Positions 14,665-50,170 of a stretch of DNA of 64,000 bases are shown here, in pieces (position 1 is the stretch's first letter; each line of letters begins with the position of its first letter). Source of the stretch: Spirochaetota bacterium (GTDB lineage Bacteria > Spirochaetota > Spirochaetia > CAKZLE01); NCBI GenBank assembly GCA_051745285.1, contig JBNJDX010000001.1, positions 67,150-131,149 on the forward strand, given 5' to 3'. Under the pieces are notes generated by a model. It was not told the DNA's origin. It did not search any database and was given only the letters and a program-made list of their open reading frames with translations. Both the position numbers and the translations under genes were made by a program.

Positions 14665-14689
14665 AGTGCCATGTCAGAACTTGTATCGC

Positions 14690-21406: not shown

Positions 21407-21435
21407 AGTAGTTACCTCAAACTCTTAACAGGTTT

Positions 21436-28651: not shown

Positions 28652-28757
28652 AAATCACATCAATTCAGCATATCGCTTCTCAAACAAATACGGCCAGAGC
28701 CCGCACTCAGACGAACTCTGGTCTGCTTATCAATCGTGTGCATCTGCCACCTGTCTG

Positions 28758-30074
28758 TTAGGAGACAAGAGAAACCAGGGTCTTGACTGTCTCGTTGTAT
28801 GCTGCCACCTCTACTGCTAAAAGCATCTTCACAGGCGTATTCCCTGCGATTACTGCGGGGTAGATAGATTTTTTCCGCAGTGCTCCAACAACTTCTTCAA
28901 GCAACCGGGGTAACTCTGCAATTCCCTCTCCTACAATGCCAACTAATGCCAGCGGCTTAGACACATCACAGACATCGGCCTCCAATTCATTCACAATCTG
29001 TTCCTTGAGGCGCTGGGCGGTAGGCTCAGCCATCTCGGCAGCCAGGTAGAAAACCATCGCATCAAAGGCATCAACTACTACGTCAGCAGTAACGTTATGC
29101 TGCTGCAGAATGGACCTGAGTTTTCCGGGCACTTCCGGATAGCGATCCAGCATGAACTTTTCCATAACCAGTTTTCGATAGGGCTTCTTTCCGGAGACGC
29201 CTACGATCTGCTGCTTTGCAGCATCACGCTCGGGAGTAATCAGGGTTCCACTAGCCTGCGGATCATTGGTGTTTTTTATAGTGATGGGAACACCGGCCCT
29301 ACGAACCGGGGCAATAGCATCCTCATGAAATACATTGGCACCAATGGATGCCAGCTCTCTGATTTCCCGGTAGGTTATCTCAGCGACCGGCCCGGCCTCA
29401 TCTGCGATTCTCGGATCAGCCATATAGATACCGGACACATCGGTCCAGTTCTCATACATATCAGCGCCTACAGCTCTCGCAGCAATAGCACCTGTTATGT
29501 CTGACCCCCCGCGAGAAAACGTTTTTACAACCCCTTGCCGATTGGATCCAAAGAACCCTGGAATGACATACATGCGCTGTGGGTCACTCAGTTTTCCAGC
29601 AACCTGTTCGTAGGAGGAATCATCCACCCTCCCGTCATCAGTCAGTATGATTACATTCTCAGTATCAACAAACTCAGCACCCAGATATTCTGCAAACATG
29701 AGAGCATTCAGATACTCCCCTCGACTGGCTGCAAAATCAGGAGTCTTCTCCTTTGGCAGGCGGCTATAGACCGTATCAAGTTCCTGCTCAATTCGGCTGC
29801 CGACTCCCAGAGCTTCGGCGATATCTAAAAAGCGTTTTTTGATAATAGCGAAGGTGTCTTCATAATCCCCGCCCCGAGAGGCAAGCTCATGACATCGATA
29901 GAGAAGATCGGTAATTTTTGTGTCTTCTGGATGCTCCTTTCCCGGCGCCGAGACAATTACTACCTTTCTTCTTTCGTCAGAAAGGACAATATCACGCACC
30001 TTCATTATCTGCCGAGCATTGGCAAGCGAGGTTCCGCCGAATTTACACACCCAAAGTTCATTCTCTCTCTTCAT
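28758..30074 (-). CDS. Aspartate kinase
   Basis: WVCKFGGTSLA gives the kinase N-terminus, and ACT-type regulatory domains sit at the C-terminus. The ORF is trimmed to MKRENEL after an AGGAG RBS. Confidence 0.9.
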   Translation of the reverse strand: MKRENELWVCKFGGTSLANARQIMKVRDIVLSDERRKVVIVSAPGKEHPEDTKITDLLYRCHELASRGGDYEDTFAIIKKRFLDIAEALGVGSRIEQELDTVYSRLPKEKTPDFAASRGEYLNALMFAEYLGAEFVDTENVIILTDDGRVDDSSYEQVAGKLSDPQRMYVIPGFFGSNRQGVVKTFSRGGSDITGAIAARAVGADMYENWTDVSGIYMADPRIADEAGPVAEITYREIRELASIGANVFHEDAIAPVRRAGVPITIKNTNDPQASGTLITPERDAAKQQIVGVSGKKPYRKLVMEKFMLDRYPEVPGKLRSILQQHNVTADVVVDAFDAMVFYLAAEMAEPTAQRLKEQIVNELEADVCDVSKPLALVGIVGEGIAELPRLLEEVVGALRKKSIYPAVIAGNTPVKMLLAVEVAAYNETVKTLVSLVS

Positions 30075-30241
30075 TGACTTAACTCCTATCATCTAAACTT
30101 GTTTGCTCTGTTAAAACATTGCCACGATACCGTTGTGTAAAGCGCAAGGATATCCTACAGGCAACTGCTTTTTCAACACCTGTATCGTCCAGTTGTGTAT
30201 AAAAGCACTTGCATGCACTCGTTAAAAGCCCATTACCTGAT

Positions 30242-31243
30242 TCAAAGGGATATGTGTGTGCCGGTATTATTGGTTTGAGCTAACTCATACGCCTTCAGAG
30301 CAATCATTGTGTCCTGCACCCCCACCCCCGTTAAATCGCAAACGGTAATCTGCTTTTCATCTGCTCTGCCGGAGTGTTTTCCTCGAATAATGTCTCCCAG
30401 CTCCAAAACAGGAGTATGCTCAGTGACCACCTTGCTGCTTATCGCCGAACGGAGTTCTCCCAGACGGAGACTCTGTGTCCTCAGATCGCAGGCTATAACA
30501 TCAATGGCACTGAAAACTTCCGGCTTGAGCTCCTGTTTTTCTTCTGTATCACTACCCATAGCTGTAATATGCAGGCCTGGGTGCAGCCAGTCAGCCTGCA
30601 GAAAGCCTTCGCGTGATGGTGTGGCAGTGATGACCACCGAGCAATTGGCAACCACCTCGTTTCCGCTTTCTGCCTGAACAACCTCAACACCAAGTTTTTG
30701 AGCTATTCTCTGGGCAAATGCTTCTTTCTTCTCCCGTGTACTCGTACTGAACAGGTACACCTTATCGAATGCACGCACAAGAGCGAGAGCTTCCAACTGA
30801 TACTCAGCCTGGACTCCACTGCCAAATACTCCGACGCACTCAACGTTTTTTGGCGCCAGGTATTTTGCAGCAACCGCACCAGCCGCTGCGGTTCGAACCT
30901 GAGTCAGGTACCCGTTGTCGAGCAGAACAGCTTGAAGAAAACCGGTTTCCGCGCTTAACACCAGCATCTGTCCGCTCTGAGAGGGAAGGCCCAGGTTGCT
31001 ATTGTTAAAAAACCCCGAGGCAATTTTTACCGCTAGACTCGGCAGTCCCTGAATATAGGCACTCTTTATGTCTACCTCGCCCCGCTGATCCGGGACAGGA
31101 ATCATCATGATTGGGGGAACTGCGGCCTTCCCGTCAGCCAAGAAAGCAAATCCCTGTTCAACAGCTTCCACCACCCCAAGATCTAACTTCACAAGTTTTT
31201 GAAGTTCCCTTTCTGTTAAAACCAAAACATTATTCGGTTTCAT
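30242..31243 (-). CDS. Ornithine cyclodeaminase/mu-crystallin family enzyme (EutC-like)
   Basis: OCD-family fold with the Rossmann motif VGVFGSGVQA. The start overlaps the 3' end of the upstream PLP-dehydratase gene by 14 nt. Confidence 0.7.
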   Translation of the reverse strand: MKPNNVLVLTERELQKLVKLDLGVVEAVEQGFAFLADGKAAVPPIMMIPVPDQRGEVDIKSAYIQGLPSLAVKIASGFFNNSNLGLPSQSGQMLVLSAETGFLQAVLLDNGYLTQVRTAAAGAVAAKYLAPKNVECVGVFGSGVQAEYQLEALALVRAFDKVYLFSTSTREKKEAFAQRIAQKLGVEVVQAESGNEVVANCSVVITATPSREGFLQADWLHPGLHITAMGSDTEEKQELKPEVFSAIDVIACDLRTQSLRLGELRSAISSKVVTEHTPVLELGDIIRGKHSGRADEKQITVCDLTGVGVQDTMIALKAYELAQTNNTGTHISL

Positions 31244-32234
31244 ACTTCTCACGCTCCTTTTCGGCCATGAGGGTCAGATACGCCCGTACATCAACATTTC
31301 GTCCGGTGAGCGGAACGACAATACTCCGGCCCTCTGTTTTTACGGCTCCGCTGCGCATTGCTGCCAAGGTTACAACGGCTGCTCCCTCTGCAACCAGTCC
31401 CTCGTGGGAAAGGAGATAGTACATACTCTCAAGAATTTCAGGCTCATCGACAACTACATGTTCATCGACGTATCTGCTTACCATATCCATAGTAAAACGA
31501 TTTTTACTCCCGATTCCGCCGAGCAGGGAATCTGCGAGTGTGTCCTGCTCATCGATGGTAACAGGTCGCCCTGCGCGCAAACTATCCAGCATCACAGTTG
31601 AGCAACGCACGGAAACACCAATCACACGTACAGAGGGCTTCAGAGCCTTTATGGCTGAGGCCATTCCTGCAAGAAGCCCTCCGCCGGAAAGCGGTACCAG
31701 AATGGTGTCAACCTCGGGCGCCTGGTGAAATATCTCCCAGGCAATCGTACCCTGTCCGGCAATGATCATCGGATCATCAAAGGGAACCACTGGAAGAAAA
31801 CCTGCGTCTTTTCGTAACTGTTCGTAGTGTTCTTGAGCCTCATCCTGCGAGTGGCCGCAAACTGCCAGTTCTGCCCCCAGCCGCTTTACAGCCTCCATCC
31901 GATACGCAGCTACATGCCGGGAGAGGCAGACGACAGCTTGGACCCCAAGCTGTCGGGCAACATAGGCTACAGCCAAACCATGATTACCGGTTGAAAAAGT
32001 GATTACCCCCTTCTTCCTCTCTTCCGGTGTCAGTGACACTAAGAGGTTTGCTGCACCCCGCACTTTAAACGAGCCGGTCGGCTGCAGTGTTTCCAGTTTC
32101 AGAGAAACACTGCGAGCATGCACCTCTTCAGTCAGCCCAACAAGCCGGTGCAGGGGCGTCCGGGGCAGCAGCGGCGCAATACGCACAGCTGCTGCACGCA
32201 CATCCTCTAAAGACGGCAAATCAGACCGATCCAT
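31230..32234 (-). CDS. PLP-dependent threonine-dehydratase-like enzyme (EutB-like)
   Basis: The PLP-lysine motif SFKVRGA and the GNHG and GGGL loops are present. There is no C-terminal ACT regulatory domain. Confidence 0.7.
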   Translation of the reverse strand: MDRSDLPSLEDVRAAAVRIAPLLPRTPLHRLVGLTEEVHARSVSLKLETLQPTGSFKVRGAANLLVSLTPEERKKGVITFSTGNHGLAVAYVARQLGVQAVVCLSRHVAAYRMEAVKRLGAELAVCGHSQDEAQEHYEQLRKDAGFLPVVPFDDPMIIAGQGTIAWEIFHQAPEVDTILVPLSGGGLLAGMASAIKALKPSVRVIGVSVRCSTVMLDSLRAGRPVTIDEQDTLADSLLGGIGSKNRFTMDMVSRYVDEHVVVDEPEILESMYYLLSHEGLVAEGAAVVTLAAMRSGAVKTEGRSIVVPLTGRNVDVRAYLTLMAEKEREKYETE

Positions 32235-32239: not shown

Positions 32240-33415
32240 TTACTTGTTGTAAATAATATCGATGGGATACTCATACAGGGGGGCATATCCATCTTCGGTT
32301 ACATAGATGGAGGCATCAATTTCGAACCCAACGTCATCATACCAGATTCCCGGGATGAGATGCAAAGCCATATTTGGCTGAAGCACAGTCTTATCACCCG
32401 GGCGGAGACTTATCGTCTGTTCACCCCAGTCCGGTGGATAGTTTACCCCGATGGAGTATCCGAGGCGAGACTCCTTGACTACCGTTGAGTGACTGATAGC
32501 CTCTCTCCACTTTGCTTCAACCTGTTCTGCGGTAATTCCCGGTTTAATGAAATCGAGCGTTGCCGCTAATCCGTCAGAAACGACCTTCGCTGTATCAGTC
32601 ATCAGTTCGGGAGGGTTGTCCCCGAGAAAAATCGTCCGAGCGATTGGAGCATGGTAATGTTTGTATACGCCTGAGAGCTCCAGCAGTACAGCCTCATCAG
32701 CTTGAAAGGGTTTATCCGACCAGGTAAGGTGCGGCGTTTTGGTAGCCTCCCCTGCCATCATAAGCGGAACAATTGCGGGATAATCCCCCCCGTACTCACT
32801 AGTCCCAGCATACTGAGCCTCCACAATTTTGGAAGCTGCATCACATTCCCTGACGCCGGGTCTGATATGCGTGGCTGCCGCTTCCATAACTTTGAGAGTA
32901 ATCTGTCCGGCTCGGCGCATCATCTCCAGTTCAGCTTCTGATTTTATTACCCGTACCCAGTTCACCAGGATATTTGCATTCACAAATTCAGCGTTAGGGA
33001 GACTCTTCTCCAGTACTACATACGAGTAATGGGTGAAGTAGAACTGATCAGACTCTACACCGATGCGTTTTTTATCCCAGCCCTTTTGTTTTATGATGTC
33101 AGCGACAAATTCCATTGGATGTTTGACTAGCGAATGCACATAGTCATCAGCATATTGATAGATATTCTCATCTGAAAGAAACGAGGTAATACGGGCTCCG
33201 TTGGCATCCATCCCTCTTCCTATCCAGACGGGTTCTTCAGCATCTAGGGAGACAAGCACGCACTGGTGCACATAAAAACTCCAGCCGTCGTATCCAGTCA
33301 AATAATTGAGATTTGCCGGATGGCTGACAAGCAACACATCTATATGCTTGGATTGCATCAGTTCTTTAGTCTTCTGTATCCGCTGTTGATATTCCTCTTT
33401 TGTAAATACTGGCAT
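32240..33415 (-). CDS. M24-fold creatinase/prolidase-like hydrolase (EutD/DoeA-like candidate ectoine hydrolase)
   Basis: 391 aa with a creatinase-type N-domain and a pita-bread C-domain. The block LTGYDGWSFYVHQC matches what I recall for ectoine hydrolases. The stop lies 5 nt from the EutB-like start. Confidence 0.6.
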   Translation of the reverse strand: MPVFTKEEYQQRIQKTKELMQSKHIDVLLVSHPANLNYLTGYDGWSFYVHQCVLVSLDAEEPVWIGRGMDANGARITSFLSDENIYQYADDYVHSLVKHPMEFVADIIKQKGWDKKRIGVESDQFYFTHYSYVVLEKSLPNAEFVNANILVNWVRVIKSEAELEMMRRAGQITLKVMEAAATHIRPGVRECDAASKIVEAQYAGTSEYGGDYPAIVPLMMAGEATKTPHLTWSDKPFQADEAVLLELSGVYKHYHAPIARTIFLGDNPPELMTDTAKVVSDGLAATLDFIKPGITAEQVEAKWREAISHSTVVKESRLGYSIGVNYPPDWGEQTISLRPGDKTVLQPNMALHLIPGIWYDDVGFEIDASIYVTEDGYAPLYEYPIDIIYNK

Positions 33416-33434: not shown

Positions 33435-34175
33435 TCACATGTTGCCTGTGTATCGGTGCTTTACAACCGCATTGTACACATAATTAATCATCGTTATATA
33501 ATCAAATACTGGCAGGCCCGTTGCCTCCTGGACAGCAGCCCCGTAGGGAGGCAGCAAACTGCACTCAAGCAGCAGAGCCCCCGGCTCTCGCTCTCTTTGG
33601 ATATCTAAAGCGGTCTGAACGGTACAGGCCTCTATCGCCTCACTGTCTAGCTCCCCCCGTTCCTCTACAACCGCTTCAGTGAAGGCTCCGCAGCTCTCCA
33701 ATCCTCGGATAGCCAACCGCCTTTGGGTAGCCCGATCAACTCCGGCGCCATCAAGAACTGAAGCATCTAGTGCAAGGCTGTTAGCGGTTATAACACCGAT
33801 CGGGCGGTTCGGACTTATTATCTGGCCGATAAAGCCCAACTGCATGAGACTGGAGAGGAACACTGGAATTTTGAGTTCTTCTGCCAGTTTTTTCTGATAG
33901 ATAGCAAGAAATCCACAGTCGCCGGTTACAGCGCGAACCCCTTCTCGCTTCAGCTGCATTGCCGCTTCTTTCACCTGCGTATACATAGTTTCATCATGTT
34001 CAAACAGATGCTTTGCCGTCAAATCAGGTATGCGTTGGAAACGCACCGGAAACGTGTAAGTCGAGGCATTAGCGGTATCACCGGGGATAAACGGGACAAA
34101 GTTTTCAATCAACAGTATCCCGATTGCCTCCCCGTAACTAACCTGTCCAGCATTAGCTGCATATCTCATCAGCAC
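33435..34175 (-). CDS. Asp/Glu/hydantoin racemase-superfamily protein (EutA-like)
   Basis: 246 aa. Two Cys-containing pseudo-symmetric half-site motifs are present (TGDCGF and LLECSLLPPY), as in racemase/arylmalonate decarboxylase-type enzymes. Confidence 0.5.
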   Translation of the reverse strand: MLMRYAANAGQVSYGEAIGILLIENFVPFIPGDTANASTYTFPVRFQRIPDLTAKHLFEHDETMYTQVKEAAMQLKREGVRAVTGDCGFLAIYQKKLAEELKIPVFLSSLMQLGFIGQIISPNRPIGVITANSLALDASVLDGAGVDRATQRRLAIRGLESCGAFTEAVVEERGELDSEAIEACTVQTALDIQREREPGALLLECSLLPPYGAAVQEATGLPVFDYITMINYVYNAVVKHRYTGNM

Positions 34176-34203: not shown

Positions 34204-35481
34204 TTATATACCTGCAATCGATGGTAAAAAGGTTGCAATCTGCGGAAACATAATTAACAGGATTGTTGAGAACACCAGAATCAGGACAAACGGCGGGGTC
34301 TTCCTGATAACTTCCAGATACGGGCGCCTGAAAATGAGTTGCGCAGTGAATATGTCACACCCGAATGGCGGTGTTGCAGAACCGATGGCAGCCTGGAGAA
34401 CAATCAGCGTACCAAGAAATACGGGATCGATACCGGTCATTACGACGTACGGTTGAAAAATCGGACTCAGCACGTATATTGCCACAATTGGGTCTACAAA
34501 CATGCAGGCAATGAAGTATGATATGACAACCACGATAATCAGCGATAATTGTGTGGGGTCAGTACCGATAATGTTGGGCATTATCTCCTGAGGCAGCCGC
34601 AAAAAGCTGATTACCCAGGAAAACACCTGTCCAGCTCCTACAAGGATAAATACCACTCCGGTAACAACACCTGCATCGAGAATTGCCTTTACCAGATTCT
34701 GGCGCGTCAATGTTTTGTAGATAAGTCCCTCTAGAACCAGCGCATAGGCCACACCAGCTGCTGCAGCTTCAGTAGGGCTGAAGATACCTGCGTAGATACC
34801 ACCGACAACAATGATCGGGAAACCCAGCACAAGATAGCCGTCTTTCAGGGCTTGCCACCGCTCTTTCGGCGTACTTTTCTGCATGATCGCAATCTTTTTG
34901 ATCTTTGAGTAGAAAAATACAAAGATCGAAAACAGGGTAAAGATCAAAATACCAGGTCCAATACCTGCTAAAAAGAGTTTTCCAATTGAGGTGCTTGTTA
35001 CAACTCCGTAGACAATAAAACCGATACTCGGCGGTATAAGCAGGGCGATATCACTGGCATTGATAATTAAACCAAGAGTAAATGAGCTTGAGTATCCGGC
35101 CTTCAACAGCATCGGCCGCATCGTTCCACCAATTGCTGATACGGTTGCCTGGGTCGAACCTGAGACAGCACCAAACAAGGTACAACTTGCATTCGTCGTA
35201 ATGGCAAGTCCTCCAGGGATATGACCGACATACACGCGGATCATTTCCACCAGTTTTGCGGCCGCCCTTCCGGAAGTCATGATGTTGGCTGCCAGAATAA
35301 ACATCGGCACACACACAAGCGCTGGAGCGCTAAACCCATTAATCACCTGTTGAATGACTACCTGCAAATCCATCAGCGGCATTTCTAAACCGAAGAACAT
35401 CAGCAGCGGTCCGAGTATCACAACCATAAAGGGGAACCCAAGCAGCAGCATCAGCACCATTGAAATCCACATAACGTTCAT
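34204..35481 (-). CDS. TRAP transporter large permease (DctM family)
   Basis: About 425-aa polytopic protein. The ATG lies 1 nt after the DctQ stop. Confidence 0.9.
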   Translation of the reverse strand: MNVMWISMVLMLLLGFPFMVVILGPLLMFFGLEMPLMDLQVVIQQVINGFSAPALVCVPMFILAANIMTSGRAAAKLVEMIRVYVGHIPGGLAITTNASCTLFGAVSGSTQATVSAIGGTMRPMLLKAGYSSSFTLGLIINASDIALLIPPSIGFIVYGVVTSTSIGKLFLAGIGPGILIFTLFSIFVFFYSKIKKIAIMQKSTPKERWQALKDGYLVLGFPIIVVGGIYAGIFSPTEAAAAGVAYALVLEGLIYKTLTRQNLVKAILDAGVVTGVVFILVGAGQVFSWVISFLRLPQEIMPNIIGTDPTQLSLIIVVVISYFIACMFVDPIVAIYVLSPIFQPYVVMTGIDPVFLGTLIVLQAAIGSATPPFGCDIFTAQLIFRRPYLEVIRKTPPFVLILVFSTILLIMFPQIATFLPSIAGI

Positions 35482-35482
35482 A

Positions 35483-36118
35483 CTACTTTTCCCCCTCTGT
35501 CTTGATTTCAACTCTCTCAAGCATCTTTATTGCATCAGCAGTCATGGTAGCCTCGTCCTCATACTCGCTCTGCTGTTCGGGAGAGAGCCACACATCCTTT
35601 TCGGCAATATTTTTGAAAAATGTCCTGATATACTGGAACCCGGCCATAAAAAATCCTACCGGAGCGACGATGAGAAAATACCAATACGGCATATTGAGAG
35701 ACGGTGTTCTCTGCCCGCTTATTTGCGTTGCCATCATATAGCGCCAGGAATGATATGCTAAGATCATGAGCACCACGGCACTGACGGCTGAAATAATCAT
35801 AACCATTATTTTCTCAAGTTTGGGTGGAAACGCCTCCAATATGGCCCCCATGCGAATATGTCTTGCTCTTCTCGCAGCATAGCTTGTGCCAATAAAAGTG
35901 ATAAGCATAACAAAGAAGGATGCTACTTCTTCTGAAAAATAGAGGCTGCGGTAGAATGTACGCGCTATAACGTTGGCAATCAGGAGTACAGCCAACATGG
36001 CAGTCGACCCGGTAATAATTCCTACTTCAATCCGGTCGACAGCTTTCGTAAATATGTCCCATGCACGTTGCAAGAATCCAACTATCCCGGGCTTGAAATC
36101 CTTCTTTTGTTCATTCAT
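35483..36118 (-). CDS. TRAP transporter small permease (DctQ family)
   Basis: 211 aa with four predicted TM helices, positioned between the SBP and DctM genes. Confidence 0.8.
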   Translation of the reverse strand: MNEQKKDFKPGIVGFLQRAWDIFTKAVDRIEVGIITGSTAMLAVLLIANVIARTFYRSLYFSEEVASFFVMLITFIGTSYAARRARHIRMGAILEAFPPKLEKIMVMIISAVSAVVLMILAYHSWRYMMATQISGQRTPSLNMPYWYFLIVAPVGFFMAGFQYIRTFFKNIAEKDVWLSPEQQSEYEDEATMTADAIKMLERVEIKTEGEK

Positions 36119-36183: not shown

Positions 36184-37263
36184 TTACATGCCTAGGGCAT
36201 CTTTTGCATTTTCGATGTCATTAAGGAGAGCTTCTAGCATCTTAGCTGCATCGTCTCCTCCGGTTTCAGGAAACCTCGGATACACTTCCTCTTCGGCTTT
36301 CTCTCGGAGCTCTGCAACCTGATCCTCGTTGAACTCTACAAACTTGATTTCAGGACGCTCTTCCTCGATTTTTGCACGATCACTCGAGTTTCTCTCATTA
36401 ATCCACTGAGCCGACTCTACTGAAACGTCTACCCAGTAGTCGCGCATGAGCTGCTGCTGTTCGTCAGAGAGTGATTCAAAGAACTGCATATTCACAGAGG
36501 GAATACCCAAAAAGGGCTCAGCCCAAAGTTGTGCAAAGTGGTCAGCCACTTCATAGAAGCCCATACTGTAGTTGGCGAACATCGGTTGAATCTGAGCATC
36601 AATTAGGCCGGTCTGGAGACCACTGTAAATCTCTCCATAAGCCAGCGTGGTCGGGTCCATATCATAAGCACGATAATCCATGCTCAACTGTTTTGAACCC
36701 ATGATTCTTGTTTTCAGTCCTTTCAGATCGTCCGGGCCATTGATAGGTTCTTTAGAAGTAATCCACTGCCAGCCTTCATACAGGATGCCCAGCGGGACAA
36801 GACCGTTTTGACGGAATTTTTCTTCTAGCATAGGCATGTAGTCGCCGTTACGTACAACCCACTCAAGAACTTCAGCGATGTTTTCACGCGGCCATACATA
36901 GTGCAGAGCCAGAGCGTTCGCCTGGGATACAAAAGCACTTATCCATGCGTAGTCAGAAAATACAAACTCAACAACACCAAGCTGTGCGAGTTCGTTGATA
37001 TCCCGGTTTCCCCCCAACGTTCCGTAGGGATATACGGTAATATCAATTCCGCCATCCGTTTCTTCCCGCATGTAGTCGGCAAAGTTGTTTGCCCAGACGG
37101 TCATAAAATCACCCTCAACCTCTTCGGAAACAAGCCGGGCTTCGATAACCTCACCGTCTGTTGACTCCTCCTCACCAGCGTCCTGCTGTCCTTGAGCGAA
37201 GAGTGCCGTAGTTGATACTAACAGTATTAGTACCAGAACTATTAGCTTCATAGTCTTTTTCAT
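36184..37263 (-). CDS. TRAP transporter substrate-binding protein (DctP family; TeaA/UehA-like candidate)
   Basis: A signal peptide (MKKTMKLIVLVLILLVSTTALFA) precedes a DctP-type periplasmic domain. Confidence 0.85.
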   Translation of the reverse strand: MKKTMKLIVLVLILLVSTTALFAQGQQDAGEEESTDGEVIEARLVSEEVEGDFMTVWANNFADYMREETDGGIDITVYPYGTLGGNRDINELAQLGVVEFVFSDYAWISAFVSQANALALHYVWPRENIAEVLEWVVRNGDYMPMLEEKFRQNGLVPLGILYEGWQWITSKEPINGPDDLKGLKTRIMGSKQLSMDYRAYDMDPTTLAYGEIYSGLQTGLIDAQIQPMFANYSMGFYEVADHFAQLWAEPFLGIPSVNMQFFESLSDEQQQLMRDYWVDVSVESAQWINERNSSDRAKIEEERPEIKFVEFNEDQVAELREKAEEEVYPRFPETGGDDAAKMLEALLNDIENAKDALGM

Positions 37264-37353
37264 AAACTCCTCCTATTAAAGTTATAAAAAATAATTGTCT
37301 CTTTATCGCGTTACCAAGATCGTATCGAATTCACCTCCTTACTTGTTGTGCGA

Positions 37354-38556
37354 TTACGCCTTTCGCTGAGAACCCGATGGATTTTCAGTAAAGTAACGCA
37401 TGGCGCCTCGAACGAGAAACTCCACTCCTGTGGGGAGTGTCTGTTCATCAATGGTAAATTGTGCGTTATGATGCGGGTAGGTGCTTGCTGTCTTCTCGTT
37501 TGCAGTTCCGATGAATGCAAACACTGCGGGAACAGCTTCCCCAAAGGCGGCAAAGTCCTCACATGCCATTGAGGCATGTTCTAGCACATTCTGCCTGCCT
37601 ACTACCTCTCCTGCGGCCTTGTGTGCAAGAGCTGTCATGGTGCTGTCGTTGACCACAGCATCATTTTCATGACTGATATCAAAGCTGCAGGTGCACCCAT
37701 ACAGGGTGCAGACATCCGTAACCAGCTGTGTAAACTTATTGGTGGGGTTATCATCATCTCCAGGCTTGGTTGCATACAGATACCGGATGGTCCCCTCCAG
37801 GACGACAGAATCCGGTATAATATTATTCTTACTTCCCCCGTTAATCTTACCGAACATCAATGCAATTGGCTTCATGGGGCTGACCAATCTGGTCTGGATT
37901 ACCTGAGCCTGCTGAATGACAGCTGCGGCGGCGATGACAGGATCAACCGCACTCTCAGGATATCCGGTGTGCCCGCCCCGTCCGCTGATAGTAACCTTAA
38001 ACACATCCATTGAAGCGGTCACTGCGCCGGATTTCACCCCAATGGTACCGCTTGGAAGTGGGGACCAGATATGAAGTCCCATAGCTGCACTGACTGCGGG
38101 ATTCTCAAGGACTCCGTCATCTATCATCACCTGAGCGCCGGCAACTTCCTCATTTGGCTGGAAAACAAACTTGATATACCCGTCAAACGAGTCTCGCATA
38201 CCGGTGAGCACTTTAGCAGCGATTAGCATCATCGCCATGTGGGCATCGTGCCCGCAGGCGTGCATCACTCCTTTGTGCTCAGATGCAAAGGGCAAACCGG
38301 TCTGCTCCTCGATTGGCAGCCCATCCATATCTGCACGCATGAGCAGCACCGGTCCGTTATCTGTGCGACCTTTCAGCACAGCAGTCACCCCCGTCTCTGA
38401 AACCCGCTTTGTAACGAGTCCCAGGTTCTGGAGGTACTGTTCTACCTTCTCTGCCGATCGGTACTCCTGAAACCCAAGTTCAGGAGATCTGTGGAAATCT
38501 CTCCGCAAAGCTATAAGTTCGTCGGTATACGCACCAACTGCTTTTTGGAAATCCAT
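37354..38556 (-). CDS. M20/M40-family amidohydrolase (N-acyl-amino-acid deacylase type)
   Basis: 400 aa with M20D features (MHACGHDAH and the dimerisation-lid region). The start lies 3 nt after the asd stop. Confidence 0.85.
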   Translation of the reverse strand: MDFQKAVGAYTDELIALRRDFHRSPELGFQEYRSAEKVEQYLQNLGLVTKRVSETGVTAVLKGRTDNGPVLLMRADMDGLPIEEQTGLPFASEHKGVMHACGHDAHMAMMLIAAKVLTGMRDSFDGYIKFVFQPNEEVAGAQVMIDDGVLENPAVSAAMGLHIWSPLPSGTIGVKSGAVTASMDVFKVTISGRGGHTGYPESAVDPVIAAAAVIQQAQVIQTRLVSPMKPIALMFGKINGGSKNNIIPDSVVLEGTIRYLYATKPGDDDNPTNKFTQLVTDVCTLYGCTCSFDISHENDAVVNDSTMTALAHKAAGEVVGRQNVLEHASMACEDFAAFGEAVPAVFAFIGTANEKTASTYPHHNAQFTIDEQTLPTGVEFLVRGAMRYFTENPSGSQRKA

Positions 38557-38559
38557 TGG

Positions 38560-39576
38560 CTACACCAAATCCCTCTTTATGAGCGTCTCGGCAATCTGAA
38601 CAGCGTTCAGAGCGGCCCCTTTTCGAATATTATTGGAAACAACCCACAGGTTGAGACCATTGTCTATCGTGGTATCTTCCCGCATTCTTCCGACCATCGT
38701 AAGGTCTTCATCATTGCTCATGATCGGTGTTGGATAGGTTTCAGTGGCGGGATCATCAATGATCTTAATGCTCTCTTCCCCGCCGAGGATATCCCGGACC
38801 TGTTCAACAGTCAGTTTTTTCTCTGTTTCAATGTTGATCGATTCAGAGTGCCCATACCAGACGGGAACCCTGACACAGGTGGCTGTCACTTTGATATTCG
38901 GATCCAGCATCTTTTTGGTCTCGTTGACCATCTTGTACTCTTCCTTAGTGTAGCCACCTTCCTGAAATACATCGATATGGGGCAGGCAGTTAAAAGCAAT
39001 CTGCTGCTTGTAGGCCTTGGGCTCACTGACACCACCACTTTGTAGCTGCTCCTCGGATTCTTCCCGCAGTCCATCGATAGCCTTTTTCCCCGAACCGGAC
39101 ACCGCCTGGTAGGTTGAAACTACCACGCGTTTGATGTTCGCTGCTGCATGCAGCGGTTTGAGTACCACCAGCATCTGAATGGTCGAACAGTTCGGATTGG
39201 CGATGATTCCTTTGTGCCAGTCCAAATCCTCCGGATTTACCTCGGGCACCACCAACGGGCAATTGGGATCCATCCTCCATTGAGCGCTATTATCTACAAC
39301 AACAGCTCCCTCTTCGACTGCAATCGGGGCAAGCACTTTACTTGCTTCTCCGCCTGCAGAAAAGATGGCAATATCTACGCCCTGAAAAGCACCTTTCTTA
39401 GCCTCTTTGGTTACCCATTTCTTTCCCTGGAACTCTACCTCTTTTCCAGCCTGGGAGGCCACATCAAGCGGTACAAGCTCAGAAACAGGAAATTTTCTTC
39501 TCTCCAATGTTGCCAGCATCTCCGTTCCAACCACTCCGAGTGCACCGACAACTGCAACAGTATATGTTTTCGCCAT
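38560..39576 (-). CDS. asd: Aspartate-semialdehyde dehydrogenase (phosphorylating, bacterial short type)
   Basis: VAVVGALGVVG, the active-site sequence IANPNCSTIQ and STYQAVSGSG are present. The ORF is trimmed to MAKTYTV after an AAGGAGG RBS. Confidence 0.9.
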   Translation of the reverse strand: MAKTYTVAVVGALGVVGTEMLATLERRKFPVSELVPLDVASQAGKEVEFQGKKWVTKEAKKGAFQGVDIAIFSAGGEASKVLAPIAVEEGAVVVDNSAQWRMDPNCPLVVPEVNPEDLDWHKGIIANPNCSTIQMLVVLKPLHAAANIKRVVVSTYQAVSGSGKKAIDGLREESEEQLQSGGVSEPKAYKQQIAFNCLPHIDVFQEGGYTKEEYKMVNETKKMLDPNIKVTATCVRVPVWYGHSESINIETEKKLTVEQVRDILGGEESIKIIDDPATETYPTPIMSNDEDLTMVGRMREDTTIDNGLNLWVVSNNIRKGAALNAVQIAETLIKRDLV

Positions 39577-39596
39577 AACCCTATCCTCCTTAGACA

Positions 39597-40979
39597 CTAA
39601 CTGAGCTTTCCGCTCTCAAGATCAGCAATAACACCCTCAATAATCTCAATCCCTTTCATCAGAAGTTCTTCAGAAATAACCAAGGGCGGAAGCAGTCTTG
39701 CTACATTGTTGTGGTGACCACCGACTTCTATCATAACGCCCCGCTGGTGGGCATACTTTCTAATCTTTTTAGCAATATCCGCAGAGGGCTTTTTGCTCTT
39801 GGAATCCTCTACCATCTCGAGGGCAAGCATCAATCCAATTCCGCGGGCTTCACCGAGAGTGTCATGTTTTTTCTCCATCTCTTTGAGACGGGCCATTGCC
39901 TTTTCACCAAGTTCAGCTGCTCTTTGCGGAATCTTATGTTCTACCATCCAGTTTAGACCCGTGGCACCAGCTGCAAATGCAACCATATTTCCGCGGAATG
40001 TGCCGATTGTCTTACCAGCCGGCCAGGTATTGAGCTCCTCCCGGTAAGCAATAGCTGAAATGGGAAATCCAACTCCACCGAGAGCTTTACTCATCGTTAC
40101 AATGTCGGGAACGATTCCAGCATGCTCGAAGGCAAACATCTTCCCTGTTCGGCCGAGTCCTGACTGAATCTCATCACAAATCATCAACACCCCATGTCTT
40201 TCAGTTATCTCGCGTACTCTTTGCAGGAACCTAGGTGAAGGGATAATAGTTCCGCCCTCACCCTGCACTGACTCAAGAATAACAGCAGCTGGTTTTGAAA
40301 AACCGGAGTGGGAATCCTCCAGGATCCGCTCCAGGGTGTTTGCAGCCTGATCGTTCACCTGGTCGTCCGGACAGCCGAACGGGTTGCGGTAAGTGTAGGG
40401 AAACGGAATAAACTGGATTCCAGGGACAAGGGTCCCAATTCCATCCCGGTGACTGCTATCGGAAGTCAGTGCCAACGCAGCTCCTGTCATCCCGTGATAC
40501 GCCCCTTCAAAGGCAAGGATCCCATTACGGCCGGTGTTGTACTTTGCCAGTTTCAAAGCCTGTTCAACAGCATCCGAACCAGTCGGTCCGCCAAAGAACA
40601 CCCGGTTGAGTTCTTTCGGCAACAGGGTGGCAAGGGTCTCCACCATCTTCTGCCGTGTTTCAGTAGGGATATCAAGTGAATGAGTAACCTTGTCAATCTG
40701 CTCATGTGCTGCTCTGAGTACTTCCGGGTGCCCATGACCAAGCGCCATAACGCCAGCTCCCGCAAACAGATCTATATAGACATTACCGTCAACGTCCTCC
40801 AGAGTAGCTCCTTTTCCTCTTGCCAGGGCCATCGGCATCCCCTTGGAATAGGAAACTGCAGAACTCTCATGTTCTGCCTGATAGGTTAAAATTTCTTTTG
40901 ATTTCGGTCCGGGTGGTACCATATGTATTTTCGGCGCCCCCTCAATCGACATCTGTTCAAACATCTTCTCATTGTCCAT
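39597..40979 (-). CDS. Class-III PLP aminotransferase (diaminobutyrate/4-aminobutyrate transaminase type; DoeD/EctB-like)
   Basis: Family blocks GSDAVE, DEIQSGLGRTG and the PLP-lysine region TMSKALGG are present. The ORF is trimmed to MDNEKMF after an AAGGAG RBS. Confidence 0.85.
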   Translation of the reverse strand: MDNEKMFEQMSIEGAPKIHMVPPGPKSKEILTYQAEHESSAVSYSKGMPMALARGKGATLEDVDGNVYIDLFAGAGVMALGHGHPEVLRAAHEQIDKVTHSLDIPTETRQKMVETLATLLPKELNRVFFGGPTGSDAVEQALKLAKYNTGRNGILAFEGAYHGMTGAALALTSDSSHRDGIGTLVPGIQFIPFPYTYRNPFGCPDDQVNDQAANTLERILEDSHSGFSKPAAVILESVQGEGGTIIPSPRFLQRVREITERHGVLMICDEIQSGLGRTGKMFAFEHAGIVPDIVTMSKALGGVGFPISAIAYREELNTWPAGKTIGTFRGNMVAFAAGATGLNWMVEHKIPQRAAELGEKAMARLKEMEKKHDTLGEARGIGLMLALEMVEDSKSKKPSADIAKKIRKYAHQRGVMIEVGGHHNNVARLLPPLVISEELLMKGIEIIEGVIADLESGKLS

Positions 40980-41007
40980 TTCTACTTCTCCTTTGCGCTT
41001 CTCCGCC

Positions 41008-41814
41008 CTACAAGGCAGATCCGCTCGCATTATGTACCATTTTTTCAGTTATCTGCTTTGCCGCATCTTTCAACGGCTCAATCAGTTCATTAATTTTCTC
41101 TTCAGTCAGTCGCATCGCTGGCCCGGATATTGAAACAGTGGCCATGACCTCTTCTCTCTCGTTATAAATCGGGGCGGCAACACTGTTGAGATCGTCGGCA
41201 AATTCAAGTATTTCCGTAGCATACCCATCTCTGAGAGCCTTCTGTACTGCCTGCTTAAACGCCTGGGGATCGGTAATGCTGTGATCGGTCCGCCGTCTAT
41301 AATTCAGATTCCTCAGGTAGGAATCCAGTTTCTCCTGGGGCCAGCAAGAAAGGAGTAATTTGCCAGAAGCACAGGTATTTACCGGATAGGTGTAGGTTAC
41401 ATCCGGATTGAGCACTACGTGGTGCGAACTCTTTACCTCTTCAATGGCTATCACTACATCATCCGAAAGCACCGTCAAATAGATATTCTCACGAGCAACT
41501 TTTTCAAGATCATACATCTTGGATTTGGCCAAATCTCGAAGCTTCTTTTTAACTGGGACAGTACTCCCAAGCTGAAACAGCTTAAAACTCAGCTGATATC
41601 CATCATCTGTTTTCTCCACATACCCTATGTGCACGAGCGTCGCTAACAGTCGGTGCACATTGGCCCGGGTCAGACCAAGCCCTTTGCAAATAGTAGAAGG
41701 CTGTACCGGTTGGTTGGCAGCAATAAACTCAAGTAGGGAACTTGCTTTTATCACAGTAGTCGCCAATGGGTAGCTTGTATCACTATTTGAACAACTGTTT
41801 ATTTGTTGAGACAT
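41008..41814 (-). CDS. IclR-family transcriptional regulator
   Basis: An N-terminal wHTH (ICKGLGLTRANVHRLLATLV) precedes a C-terminal IclR effector domain. It is the first gene of the minus-strand island. Confidence 0.85.
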   Translation of the reverse strand: MSQQINSCSNSDTSYPLATTVIKASSLLEFIAANQPVQPSTICKGLGLTRANVHRLLATLVHIGYVEKTDDGYQLSFKLFQLGSTVPVKKKLRDLAKSKMYDLEKVARENIYLTVLSDDVVIAIEEVKSSHHVVLNPDVTYTYPVNTCASGKLLLSCWPQEKLDSYLRNLNYRRRTDHSITDPQAFKQAVQKALRDGYATEILEFADDLNSVAAPIYNEREEVMATVSISGPAMRLTEEKINELIEPLKDAAKQITEKMVHNASGSAL

Positions 41815-42153
41815 ACCTTATTATGAGGCGGGCTTTTTTCATTTGTCAAGAGAAGATTTTCATAATTTCTGATTTTATTGCTCAGCTTTCTGCGGGAAAC
41901 AGCAAAAAAATGGGTATAGGGAGGGGAAGACCGCGTTATTACACAGCTGAAATTACTCTTTCGGCATTGTCGGTCTTCTCTAACGACCAGCTCTGTTTTT
42001 ACCGCGAGTTTGGCCCCGGTAAACGAGATGGTTAACCATATAGGCAGGCAGTTTGCTTAGAGGGGTATCACGCGTGAGGGATGGTGTCTTGCCTCAATGC
42101 ACCTGCAGTAGATCTCAGCATTCATCCCATTATGCTAGAAGAGGGGTCTGCTC

Positions 42154-42432
42154 TTATTTTTTGTGCTTTCGTCTGAAAATTGGATGGAAATACTTATCCA
42201 TGTCTACGTGCCGGGAGATGTATTTGATCAGTAGTGTATACAGACCATAGGTCCCTACAATTGAAACAACAAAGGAGAGCAGCATAAACAGTTGAACGGC
42301 TGCCGGCGAGGTATCTTCAGTCAGGAATATCCCCAGTACAGCCAGTACCAGGATAAAGAGCACTATCATCATCACGACGTTTAGTACTGAAGCCACAAGC
42401 ACGAATAGTGCAGTATTTACCTTCTTATTCAT
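42154..42432 (-). CDS. Small hypothetical membrane protein (2 TM helices)
   Basis: 92 aa with two hydrophobic helices and a basic tail. The start overlaps the lspA stop (ATGA). Confidence 0.5.
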   Translation of the reverse strand: MNKKVNTALFVLVASVLNVVMMIVLFILVLAVLGIFLTEDTSPAAVQLFMLLSFVVSIVGTYGLYTLLIKYISRHVDMDKYFHPIFRRKHKK

Positions 42433-47953: not shown

Positions 47954-47995
47954 CTGTAGAACATATACACTATGTTTTCCAGATTGGAGGAAGAA

Positions 47996-48664
47996 ATGAG
48001 AAATATAAGAAGATTGAAAGACATTATTCATGCAAACGTCAATTCAGCACTGGACAAGGCTGAAAACCCAGAAAAACTGATCCGCTACATGATCGGTGAG
48101 ATGGAAGAATCCCTTACTGACTTAAAGTCATCCTGTGCTGCAAAAATAGCCCAGAAAACCCGGACAGAGCAGGACATCGCTCGGTTGCAGGAAACTGCCT
48201 CCAGATGGAACGAACGGGCTGAACTTGCCGTTGAGAAAGGAAAGGATGAGCTCGCACGAGAAGCACTGGTAGAAAAAAACCGCGCCGAACGTGAACTGGA
48301 AGCAGCAAAAAACTCCTTAAGCAAACTTGAGACCATTATCAGTGAGTGCCGGTCAAATACAAAGGAACTTGAACAGAAGCTACAGTCTGTGCGGGAAAAA
48401 CAGCGGACCCTCATTGAACGCGGTATTCACGCGAGAGAGACTCTCCTCACGAGAGAGCAGATTCGCGAGGCAGAGGGCGAAGATGCCTACCGGAGATTCA
48501 GCCAATTCGAGCAGCGTATTGAGCGTATGGAGGCAGAGGCAGAAATGGCCGGATTTGGCACAAAACCATCAGAAGACTCCTTCAGCTCCATGGAGCACGA
48601 GGATGAGATCGAAGATCAGCTGTCCAAGCTGAAGAAAAAAGCCAAGTCAAAGACGAAGGCGTAA
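47996..48664 (+). CDS. pspA: Phage shock protein A (PspA/IM30 family), copy 1
   Basis: The coiled-coil protein begins MRNIRRLKDIIHANVNSALDKAENPEKLIRYMIGEMEE. The ATG lies 5 nt after a GGAGG RBS. The track start at 47972 has no RBS and would sit about 9 nt from the predicted transcription start. Confidence 0.9.
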   Translation: MRNIRRLKDIIHANVNSALDKAENPEKLIRYMIGEMEESLTDLKSSCAAKIAQKTRTEQDIARLQETASRWNERAELAVEKGKDELAREALVEKNRAERELEAAKNSLSKLETIISECRSNTKELEQKLQSVREKQRTLIERGIHARETLLTREQIREAEGEDAYRRFSQFEQRIERMEAEAEMAGFGTKPSEDSFSSMEHEDEIEDQLSKLKKKAKSKTKA

Positions 48665-48677
48665 GGAGTACAAACTG

Positions 48678-48950
48678 ATGAAGACAAACCAAAGCACGCA
48701 AAGAAAAAGGTTGTACCGCTCACGAGATGGTATTATCTGGGGAGTCTGCCAGGGACTGGCTAACTGGCTTGAGATACCTGTCGGTATTGTAAGAGGAATC
48801 TGCATACTTTCATTCATACTGTCGGGATTTCTGCCGATTGCCGGGTTGTATGCTGCAGCCGCCGTCCTACTCCCCCTTGAACCGGCTAGAGGATTCAGCA
48901 GCCGCTATTACAATACCGAACACGATTGGGACCGCCGCTTCTATCGCTAA
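48678..48950 (+). CDS. pspC: PspC-domain membrane protein, copy 1
   Basis: The PspC N-terminal motif LYRSRDGIIWGVCQGLANWLEIPVGIVR is followed by a TM helix. Confidence 0.8.
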   Translation: MKTNQSTQRKRLYRSRDGIIWGVCQGLANWLEIPVGIVRGICILSFILSGFLPIAGLYAAAAVLLPLEPARGFSSRYYNTEHDWDRRFYR

Positions 48951-48986
48951 CGATTCGTGCAGTTCCCTTGAAATGCTATACCCTCT

Positions 48987-49016
48987 GCAGGCCGCCGAAA
49001 GGCGGTCTGCTTCTGT
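48987..49016 (+). terminator. Hairpin between convergent pspC-1 and pspF
   Basis: GCAGGCCGCC-gaaa-GGCGGTCTGC forms a 10-bp stem with one G-U pair and a GNRA-like loop, followed by TTCTGT. Confidence 0.45.
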
Positions 49017-49017
49017 A

Positions 49018-50019
49018 TCAGCTCTGCAGTCTGGACTGGTATTTTCTATAGAGTCCGCGGAATTGGTCATAGCTGAGACCGAGCAGACTTGCAGCTGTTT
49101 TCTGGTTCTGCTGGGAGCGCGACAAGGCTTTTTGGAGAAAGGCTAAATCAAGGTCTTCCCTGGCCTGAAAGAACTCATCAAGCCCATACTGAGAAAGCAG
49201 TCCCCCGGAGGTCTGTATGTCCGACTCTCCAATCTCATAGGGATTTTTGAACGGATCGGTTTCGATTGCTGCAATGACCTGCTGATCACTACGATATACT
49301 GCCCGCTCGACACTGTTTTTCAACTCGCGTATATTCCCCGGCCAGTCATACTGCAGCATGCTATCAACTGCCTCTTGTGAAAACAGCGGTTCTTGTTCCC
49401 AGCCGCACTCAAAAGCCATCCGTGCAGCAAAGTGGTTAGCCAGAAGCAGAATATCTTCTCCCCGAACCCGGAGGGGAGGCAGAAAGAGCACTTCGAAAGA
49501 TAGCCGATCAAGCAGGTCCTGCTTGAATTTCTCCTCTTTGCAGAGCTTTGGAAGGTCTGCATTGGTGGCACCAACAATGCGGACATTCACTTCAATCGTC
49601 TTAGATGAGCCTACCCGCTCAAAACAACCATACTCAACGACCCGAAGGATTTTCTCCTGTACCTCGAGCGGTATGAGACCGATCTCATCCAAGAACAGGG
49701 TTCCGTCATCTGCTTCCTCAAAACGGCCTTTCCGAGTTTTTGAGGCCCCGGTAAAGGCTCCAGCTTCATGCCCAAACAGCTCAGTCTCAATGAGACTGGG
49801 GGGCAGGGCTGCTAAGTTGATAGCTACAAACGGCTGCTGCCACCGAGGAGAAAGGTAGTGAATACGAGAGGCTGCCAGCTCCTTGCCGCTGCCGCGCTCG
49901 CCAATGACCAGCACAGGCCGATCGACCTTTGCAGCTCTGCTGATCTCCTGCTGAAAATTCAGAAATACCTCAGACTCGCCGAGGGGAGCCTCACGTCTAA
50001 CTTCGTCTACTTGTATCAT
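49018..50019 (-). CDS. pspF: Sigma-54-dependent activator without a receiver domain (PspF type)
   Basis: 333 aa. The AAA+ core carries Walker A GERGSGKE, the sigma-54 contact loop GAFTGA and Walker B LFLDEI. A C-terminal HTH (QKTAASLLGLSYDQFRGLYRKY) is present and there is no N-terminal sensory domain. The gene is divergent from pspA-2. Confidence 0.85.
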   Translation of the reverse strand: MIQVDEVRREAPLGESEVFLNFQQEISRAAKVDRPVLVIGERGSGKELAASRIHYLSPRWQQPFVAINLAALPPSLIETELFGHEAGAFTGASKTRKGRFEEADDGTLFLDEIGLIPLEVQEKILRVVEYGCFERVGSSKTIEVNVRIVGATNADLPKLCKEEKFKQDLLDRLSFEVLFLPPLRVRGEDILLLANHFAARMAFECGWEQEPLFSQEAVDSMLQYDWPGNIRELKNSVERAVYRSDQQVIAAIETDPFKNPYEIGESDIQTSGGLLSQYGLDEFFQAREDLDLAFLQKALSRSQQNQKTAASLLGLSYDQFRGLYRKYQSRLQS

Positions 50020-50052
50020 GGTTTATCATACCATCACTCGGTTATAATTACC
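50020..50052. promoter_or_regulatory. Tandem dyad sites (candidate PspF UAS) between pspF and pspA-2
   Basis: GGTTTATCATACC and GGTTATAATTACC have centres 20 bp apart. The first site abuts the pspF start codon. The spacing to the -24 element is about the same as at pspA-1. Confidence 0.45.
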
Positions 50053-50104
50053 ATAGTTGGACATCCTTCACCCCATCACACCCTTCTATGATTGGGATAA
50101 AATT

Positions 50105-50120
50105 TGGCACACTTCCTGCT
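50105..50120 (+). promoter_or_regulatory. Sigma-54 (-24/-12) promoter of pspA-2BC
   Basis: TGGCAC-ACTTC-CTGCT. GG lies at 50106-50107 and GC at 50118-50119, which is the correct 12-nt register. Confidence 0.75.
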
Positions 50121-50170
50121 TTTAAACTTGTGGAAAGGACAAAAGCATACTACCATTCAGGAGGAATGAC

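Follow-up and report, generated by a model that had tools for sequence, protein, structure and literature searches.

A phosphorylating aspartate semialdehyde dehydrogenase in the ectoine island of spirochetes, and a possible route to ATP through aspartate kinase

What becomes of the aspartate semialdehyde (ASA) formed when an anaerobic spirochete breaks down ectoine? The question is raised by a stretch of 64,000 nucleotides from a Spirochaetota bacterium (the window), in which a predicted ectoine catabolism island carries a gene for a phosphorylating ASA dehydrogenase (Asd; 38560-39576, minus strand) in the position that the aldehyde dehydrogenase DoeC/Ssd holds in known pathways. There is strong support for regarding this Asd as a fixed part of the spirochete ectoine island and not a one-off. 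We favour, with confidence a little above even, a scheme in which the island Asd would oxidise ectoine-derived ASA to aspartyl phosphate, from which aspartate kinase (Ask) would then yield ATP.

The island Asd and its coenzyme pocket

A preliminary description of this DNA had called the gene product a bona fide phosphorylating Asd, and this is borne out. The open reading frame (ORF) extends over 38560-39597 on the minus strand, with the true start at the ATG at 39576, 9 nt downstream of a GGAGG. The protein carries the active-site motif NPNCSTIQ, scores above the curated equivalog cut-offs (NF011456, 470.3 bits against 223; TIGR01296 asd_B, 438.2 against 324.2), and aligns end to end with its nearest solved relatives, Vibrio cholerae Asd2 (2QZ9) and Streptococcus pneumoniae Asd (2GYY). 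In this alignment, the catalytic Cys and His, the substrate-binding Arg and Glu, and the phosphate-binding Arg and Lys are all kept. The phosphate-binding Arg99 is present in 119 of 120 members of the clade to which the protein belongs (D-type Asd below). An exact-sequence look-up with both possible starts gave no match. As both the active site and the phosphate site are intact, oxidation of ASA by this enzyme must release an acyl phosphate, β-aspartyl phosphate.

The coenzyme pocket is a different matter. At positions 11, 36, 37, 39, and 40 (S. pneumoniae Asd numbering), five solved asd_B enzymes have T/S11, A/G36, S37, R39, and S40, an NADP-type pocket, where the window Asd has L, D, V, S, and Q (L13, D38, V39, S41, and Q42 in its own numbering). 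Neither the window Asd nor any of the clade members (119 of 119) has the T11, S37, R39, S40 set. Throughout the clade (n = 119), position 36 is always Asp, position 37 is hydrophobic (I or V in 117), position 39 is never Arg, position 11 is L, M, C, or H and never Thr or Ser, and position 40 is mostly Q, N, or H; among 150 representatives of the family at large, an acidic residue at position 36 is rare (about 3%). An AlphaFold (AF2) model (pLDDT 88) places D38 as the final residue of strand β2. In Rossmann folds, an Asp at the end of β2 is the classic residue for holding the ribose hydroxyls of the adenosine in NAD, and it disfavours NADP by repelling its 2'-phosphate. Ser37 and Arg39 have been described as belonging to the adenine pocket in S. 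pneumoniae Asd, and the Methanocaldococcus jannaschii enzyme as less specific for NADP because the Arg is lost (PMC3276109). The island Asd belongs to a distinct clade that probably uses NAD+ rather than NADP+. The NAD-like pocket was not seen in the preliminary description, which assumed NADP+. A switch to NAD with phosphorolysis retained is what catabolic use, in the direction of ASA oxidation, would lead one to expect.

A fixed place in the spirochete ectoine island

The island genes form a tight array, all on the minus strand, with ask and a hairpin at the far end. Their sequences identify the array as an IclR-controlled module predicted to serve the uptake and breakdown of ectoine and hydroxyectoine. 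The TRAP (tripartite ATP-independent periplasmic) transporter and the other features are as follows; DABA is diaminobutyrate.

41849-41820, minus: strong promoter-like site TTGACA-18-CATAAT before the IclR gene (promoter scan)
41008-41814, minus: IclR-family regulator, first island gene (Pfam HTH_IclR and IclR_C); this gene heads the spirochete islands
39597-41030, minus: class-III aminotransferase (AT) of the DABA transaminase family, predicted DoeD/Atf role (TIGR00709 dat, 418.8 bits against a cut-off of 401.6; PF00202)
38560-39576, minus: island Asd, asd_B type, phosphorylating, NAD-like pocket (NCBIfam models, alignment)
37354-38556, minus: M20 amidohydrolase, putative N-acetyl-DABA deacetylase in the DoeB/EutE role (TIGR01891, 326.7 bits against 153.75)
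36184-37263, minus: TRAP DctP (Pfam)
35483-36118, minus: TRAP DctQ (Pfam)
34204-35520, minus: TRAP DctM (Pfam)
33435-34175, minus: EutA-like protein, Asp/Glu-racemase-like, PRK07475 (NF005679, 257.9 bits against a cut-off of 231)
32240-33415, minus: predicted ectoine hydrolase EutD/DoeA, M24 family (TIGR02993, 466 bits, below the cut-off of 613)
31230-32234, minus: EutB-like pyridoxal-phosphate-dependent dehydratase, hydroxyectoine branch (NF005680, 379.5 bits, below the cut-off of 413)
30242-31252, minus: EutC-like cyclodeaminase/reductase, hydroxyectoine branch (NF006141, 435 bits against a cut-off of 408; TIGR02992, 372.7 bits)
28758-30074, minus: Ask, the ordinary ask of the lineage, at the 3' end of the island (TIGR00657, 233 bits against 208.7)
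28694-28721, minus: terminator-like hairpin after ask, 11-bp stem and T-rich tail
26096-27115, minus: archaeal-type Asd (asd_EA), outside the island (TIGR00978, 338.7 bits against 301.2)

EutD, which misses the TIGR02993 cut-off, aligns over its full length with the solved DoeA 6TWK (365 bits), and the top PDB matches of the TRAP binding protein are the ectoine binders TeaA (2VPN, 3GYY) and UehA (3FXB), at about 130-137 bits. The PF01177 match of the EutA-like orthologue is faint. The island has no DoeB/EutE-type deacetylase, its place being taken by the M20 protein (262 bits on the DoeB2 model NF038260, under the cut-off of 550), and no EnuR/AsnC-type regulator of the kind found in doe/eut clusters, having one of the IclR family instead. 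By the homologues of Asd, Ask, and asd_EA, the window is assigned to the Sphaerochaetaceae, a family of fermentative spirochetes that are not spiral in shape, and salt-lake metatranscriptomes contain up to 97% of the sampled sequence words of the island.

The stop codon of AT (39599-39597) lies 20 nt ahead of the asd ATG, and the asd stop is followed, after 3 nt, by the M20 ATG at 38556, so that both junctions are as the preliminary description had given them. A genome scan with EutD returned 80 loci (numbered with the others as L), and a metagenome scan with Asd returned loci at 58-83% identity. On long contigs with differing flanks, close homologues of Asd at 71-83% identity are embedded in an AT-Asd-M20-TRAP-EutD array like that of the window. 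The order IclR-AT-Asd-M20-TRAP-EutA-EutD-EutB-EutC is found in Sphaerochaetaceae, Pleomorphochaeta, and Sediminispirochaeta, in several chromosomal contexts, and all spirochete loci of the EutD genome scan that cover the position have AT-Asd-M20, with the sole exception of L029. In all, some 50 spirochete islands, counted without redundancy, keep AT-Asd-M20. When the loci were pooled and made non-redundant, a class-III transaminase stood directly upstream of 44 of 49 D-type asd genes compared to none of 12 NADP-type ones (ordinary Asd of similar identity), and an M20 gene directly downstream of 42 of 50 compared to none of 11. The D-type enzyme was seen only beside a transaminase or ask.

Neither the annotated ORFs of the window (at least 100 aa) nor the island neighbours examined include a Pfam aldehyde dehydrogenase, and neither ectA nor ectC is among those ORFs; six further ORFs of at least 100 aa lie outside the annotation, each of fewer than 270 aa and too short for an aldehyde dehydrogenase. 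On the evidence of the annotated ORFs, we rejected a hidden ectA, ectC, or aldehyde dehydrogenase in the window. The position of Asd in place of DoeC/Ssd, as the preliminary description had seen it, is thus conserved across the spirochete ectoine islands. Outside the spirochetes, comparison of ectoine clusters gave another picture: related islands of Firmicutes (Alkaliphilus, Gudongella, Soehngenia, Tindallia, and Syntrophomonadaceae) and of Desulfotignum are without AT, Asd, and Ask. They are M20-TRAP-EutA-EutD islands (Firmicutes L032, L037, L050, and L057; Desulfotignum L062 and L068), and those of Firmicutes have a conserved trio of a PanB-like protein (about 284 aa), an uncharacterised protein (about 312 aa), and a Glu/Leu/Phe/Val-dehydrogenase-like protein (about 411 aa), with a class I/II aminotransferase in place of the dehydrogenase in Desulfotignum. 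These islands probably mark a different, undescribed route for DABA.

The preliminary description had proposed that the second, divergent asd could cover the biosynthetic role, and our data fit this well. The asd_EA protein matches 1YS4 (229 bits) with Cys, His, and Arg kept, and has homologues at 68-83% identity in Sphaerochaeta associata, a multi-species Sphaerochaeta entry, and complete uncultured Sphaerochaeta genomes. Homologues are present, too, on a 4.3-Mb contig where no ectoine island lies near the ask locus, and Pleomorphochaeta sp. DL1XJH-081 has one alongside an island with its own Asd. By its sequence and distribution, asd_EA is identified as the lineage-wide housekeeping copy, outside the island; its existence would leave the island copy free for catabolism.

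Four salt-lake metatranscriptomes contain contigs of the island, and their assembler depths are given below; contig depth is a crude and poor measure of expression, and carry-over of DNA in the libraries is possible.

DctP: about 500-2600
M20 and the 3' part of asd: 105-300
AT and IclR: 3-115
EutA and EutD: 6-100
eutB, eutC, and ask: 1-22
asd_EA: 0-2.6
other genes of the organism: 0-45

The asd-M20 junction is bridged by contigs (for example, 37250-38946), as is AT-asd (38917-40187), and in one run only, a single 3245-nt contig (28753-31973) covers ask, eutC, and part of eutB. The island asd is thus transcribed with the island at a high level in situ, where asd_EA is almost silent. No other transcript of the region comes near the mRNA of the TRAP binding protein in abundance (500-2600 compared to 0-45 outside the island), which points to active scavenging of the solute in situ.

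Aspartate kinase and the fate of the acyl phosphate

The pathway that we propose would begin with import of ectoine and hydroxyectoine by the TRAP system. EutD would open the ring, hydroxyectoine passing first through the EutA-like protein, EutB, and EutC; M20 would remove the acetyl group; and AT would transaminate DABA to ASA. The island Asd would then convert ASA, phosphate, and probably NAD+ to β-aspartyl phosphate, a reversal of the biosynthetic reaction by a GAPDH-like (glyceraldehyde-3-phosphate dehydrogenase) mechanism, and Ask would pass the phosphoryl group to ADP, giving aspartate and ATP by substrate-level phosphorylation, which would be useful to a fermenter. We regard oxidative, phosphorylating use of ASA by the island Asd as likely, and recovery of ATP through Ask as plausible; the substrate of M20 and the coupling to Ask with a net gain of ATP are inferred. 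The Asd and Ask pair is energetically analogous to GAPDH and phosphoglycerate kinase, and the aspartokinase equilibrium lies far towards aspartate and ATP, so any Ask in the cell could harvest the acyl phosphate and adjacency of the two genes would not be required. That both reactions are reversible, as the preliminary description had it, is supported by the literature (PMC2694679, PMC4751538, PMC3276109): aspartate kinase and Asd are both measurably reversible, with Asd near equilibrium in vivo (PMC2694679), and Asd is routinely assayed in the ASA-oxidising direction (PMC4751538).

As a speculation, aspartate could go onward to oxaloacetate and pyruvate. A complete operon for a Na+-pumping oxaloacetate decarboxylase (γ, α, and β subunits) lies at 4800-8344 of the window and a GTP-dependent phosphoenolpyruvate carboxykinase at 14690-16618, which could offer the carbon of aspartate a downstream route; the Na+-translocating decarboxylase operon and the carboxykinase have moderate depths (about 4-45) in the metatranscriptomes.

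Support for the part of Ask in this scheme is weaker. The gene follows eutC after 167 nt, has the ribosome-binding site AGGAG, and is followed by the hairpin; its product scores 408.6 bits on equivalog NF006540, below the cut-off of 434, and matches PDB 3TVI (318 bits) over its full length, through the C-terminal region. The preliminary description had placed it as the closing gene of the island. It is indeed at that place, but it is the lineage's ordinary ask and not an island gene. In the island-free loci L088-L090, an Ask 57% identical to that of the window stands in the order RecJ-S21-MetB-HTS-SerA-SerC-AsnC-Ask-DHOdh-acyltransferase. The same flanks are found in L001-L003, L006-L012, and L077, with the island between AsnC and Ask, and in a neighbour-joining tree, the island-free Asks (L086, L087, and L088-L090) are interleaved with the island-linked ones. 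An orthologue at the same site without the island and the interleaved tree led us to reject a dedicated island paralogue, and the landing site of the island explains the position of Ask in the main Sphaerochaetaceae group. We also considered the missing Pfam ACT domains as a mark of a deregulated island Ask and rejected this, as the island-free L088 Ask is also without such matches and 3TVI aligns.

In most related islands, EutC is followed by another M24 gene, the divergent EutD2 (45-53% identity to EutD), and in these (L001-L014, L024, L030, and others) it lies between EutC and Ask; the window has no EutD2 and only the 167-nt spacer (30075-30241) before ask. Two copies of eutD have likewise been noted in Thermodesulfobacteriota (PMC13188858).

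These observations on Ask weigh against the scheme that we favour, and others join them. In L004/L028, L013, and L061, the island is followed directly by DHOdh with no Ask, and L014, L031, L034, L046, and L079 have Asd with no adjacent ask, which makes at least eight such islands. The window Ask retains a full-length C-terminal regulatory region, and feedback inhibition could block the reverse reaction too; a weak promoter-like site in the 167-nt gap makes an independent promoter possible; and the depth of ask is at background, 10-100 times below that of asd. Aspartyl phosphate is labile and could simply hydrolyse. The spirochete island L029 (3325-6110) has the transaminase followed by M20 across a 155-nt gap, with no Asd and no Ask; we looked for an aldehyde dehydrogenase substituting for Asd there and found none, the neighbours being aconitase-type genes, a regulator, and Lnb. 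Finally, it is from sequence that we infer both the NAD preference and the direction of flux through Asd.

On the other side stands a linkage that reaches beyond the landing site. An ask lies within 10 kb of 27 of 60 D-type Asd loci compared to none of 22 NADP-type loci (p = 3e-5, in a test that ignores phylogenetic relatedness). In the window, both flanks are unlike those of the main Sphaerochaetaceae group, and Ask is still attached. Sediminispirochaeta has Ask 34-44 nt after EutC or EutD2 as the last gene before a strand switch, L005 and L048/L120 include Ask in other arrangements, and D-type Asd found outside ectoine islands is again beside an Ask (L131, L143, L144, L162, and L115). The preliminary description had counted an independently transcribed Ask, regulated like a housekeeping one, against its own proposal; the gene is resident and ordinary, and some linkage of D-type Asd with ask remains.

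The resident ask, its absence next to several islands, and its background depth, far under that of asd, all suit an explanation in which Asd makes aspartyl phosphate but no energy is conserved, the compound hydrolysing spontaneously or by an acylphosphatase and ask standing nearby through a historical accident of where the island inserted. That aspartyl phosphate is unstable has been noted (PMC4751538). We nonetheless consider this explanation unlikely, though it deserves more weight than the two that follow, because a non-phosphorylating aldehyde dehydrogenase, as used by other lineages, would be simpler, whereas the phosphate-binding residues are strictly kept here. Every maker of Lys, Thr, and Met has an Ask, with which the acyl phosphate would come to equilibrium, and the enrichment of ask near D-type Asd extends outside the Sphaerochaetaceae insertion site. 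It might instead be argued that asd, although carried along with the island, is in essence a biosynthetic or housekeeping gene, balancing the ASA pool or working forward, and that ASA leaves through homoserine dehydrogenase or a remote aldehyde dehydrogenase. The enzyme has all the features of a normal Asd, L029 manages without an island copy, and clusters of Bacillales carry thrA and adh for ASA (PMC13188858); the very low expression of asd_EA in situ would also allow biosynthesis to depend on the island copy. However, the clade is confined to sites beside a DABA-type transaminase or ask, the NADP pocket of the biosynthetic enzyme is gone in all 119 members, and asd_EA is the conserved copy of the lineage, including isolates without the island. 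Moreover, ASA straight from DABA makes forward flux through Asd needless, and neither hom nor an aldehyde dehydrogenase gene is present in the island or among the annotated ORFs of the window. We judge a biosynthetic role improbable.

The substrate of the island could also be a related solute (N-acetyl-DABA, hydroxyectoine only, another cyclic amidine, or a DABA conjugate), which would leave the logic of Asd unchanged. EutD (466 against 613), EutB (379 against 413), and M20 (262 against 550) all fall under their equivalog cut-offs, and D-type Asd occurs with other upstream enzymes as well (OTCase-like, amidohydrolase, and thiamine pyrophosphate (TPP) enzyme). Against this, EutD matches the solved DoeA over its full length at 365 bits, the best PDB matches of the binding protein are TeaA and UehA, the EutA/B/C/D set is complete, and the source is a salt lake; we give a different solute little credence. 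Returning to the phosphorylating, ATP-yielding scheme, we offer as a tentative generalisation, at somewhat less than even confidence, that the NAD-type Asd clade is a dedicated catabolic ASA dehydrogenase that, with Ask, would provide a previously unrecognised substrate-level phosphorylation in spirochetes fermenting ectoine, and probably in other operons that lead from DABA-type compounds to ASA.

Comparison with known systems and neighbouring genes

Like known doe/eut catabolism, the island combines a predicted DoeA/EutD-family ectoine hydrolase, EutA/B/C-type genes, a TeaA/UehA-like TRAP transporter, and a DABA transaminase that would give ASA, with aspartate as the expected end product. 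It differs in having a phosphorylating Asd for the DoeC/Ssd aldehyde dehydrogenase, M20 for the DoeB/EutE deacetylase, IclR for EnuR/AsnC, and an anaerobic spirochete as host. DoeC/Ssd resembles succinate semialdehyde dehydrogenase, and catabolism has been described as retracing biosynthesis with different types of enzyme; the same 2018 review restricted ectoine consumers to Proteobacteria (PMC5924519). A 2026 survey added Thermodesulfobacteriota, Bacillota, Actinomycetota, and Archaea (PMC13188858). The putative clusters of Bacillota, Actinomycetota, and Thermodesulfobacteriota in that survey resemble the present island in lacking EutE and EnuR, in having an M20-type abgB, and in a synteny unlike that of Proteobacteria, and they often have two copies of eutD. 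They differ in that thrA (homoserine dehydrogenase) and adh (aldehyde dehydrogenase) handle ASA: the Bacillales clusters have abgB, thrA, and adh, and the survey mentions no asd, ask, or Spirochaetota (PMC13188858).

The biosynthetic Ask/Asd pair shares both enzyme families and the chemistry with our proposal, which differs in the reversed direction and in the loss of the NADP pocket. A precedent for ask linked to ectoine genes is the Ask_Ect of ectABC(D) clusters; here, however, ectA and ectC are missing from the annotated ORFs, the neighbours are hydrolases and uptake genes, and the ask is an ordinary one, not a dedicated paralogue. The closest parallel to the proposed energy-conserving step is GAPDH with phosphoglycerate kinase, which has in common oxidation of an aldehyde through a Cys thioester, phosphorolysis to an acyl phosphate, and transfer by a kinase to ADP, the substrate and the protein family of the kinase being different. 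We know of no description of ATP formation by aspartate kinase in vivo. The reaction of GAPDH has been described as analogous to that of Asd in reverse, with an identical mechanism (PMC3276109). Full-text searches of the literature turned up neither asd nor ask in connection with ectoine breakdown, nor any ATP-yielding aspartokinase. Ectoine catabolism with a phosphorylating Asd is a new arrangement, and an energy-conserving step in it is credible.

Few osmolytes are released into saline habitats in larger amounts than ectoine. What happens to it under anaerobic conditions has hardly been studied, and published surveys of ectoine consumers do not include Spirochaetota. Few reactions are known to support substrate-level phosphorylation; that of aspartyl phosphate with Ask, if true, would add to anaerobic bioenergetics. 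The NAD-type Asd signature offers a simple sequence marker for such catabolic modules, and a naturally NAD-linked Asd would be usable in engineering pathways of the aspartate family.

D-type Asd is found in other settings too. In L131 (4845-13570), L121, and L133, its gene sits in a compact operon that also encodes Ask, a class I/II (aspartate-type) aminotransferase, a TPP enzyme resembling acetolactate synthase, an ABC transporter of the NMT1 type, and a TetR regulator, with gaps of about 20 nt between Asd, aminotransferase, and Ask in operons of the L131 type. L162 (1296-12013) has an Amidohydro_3 protein, a Liv-type ABC transporter, an FCD-GntR regulator, and a D-type Asd that is abutted by a short Ask (331 aa) of the PRK08210 class. 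The adjacency of asd and dapG is a common biosynthetic arrangement in Firmicutes, and we leave the L162 pair as a lead only, not as an independent recruitment. L140 and L152 combine a class-III transaminase and D-type Asd with aconitase X and a carbamoyltransferase resembling OTCase; in L152, a TRAP transporter lies upstream. The arrangements in L162 and in L140/L152 suggest that D-type Asd serves several catabolic operons.

At the boundary of the island, a 92-aa ORF (42154-42432) between the IclR gene and lspA (region 41815-42428) has only a match to the middle of DUF2232, below the gathering score, and may be the remnant of a gene. About 6.5 kb beyond ask lies a trio of AMMECR1, radical-SAM, and Memo genes (19807-22332); L037 has a fused LigB/Memo-AMMECR1 gene and a radical-SAM gene (14492-16885) about 3 kb from its Firmicutes island, and the proximity in both cases is probably a coincidence. 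Elsewhere in the window, a purine-type salvage or catabolism group at 8441-14425 comprises a deaminase, a PfkB kinase, a xanthine/uracil permease, and a molybdenum hydroxylase with its 2Fe-2S subunit, and a σ54 activator stands between two PspA/IM30 genes at 47972-50836. The gene at 54932-56959 encodes a protein of about 660 aa that combines GNAT and HATPase_c domains; the same architecture recurs in L048 (193-2169), directly upstream of Ask in the rearranged island.

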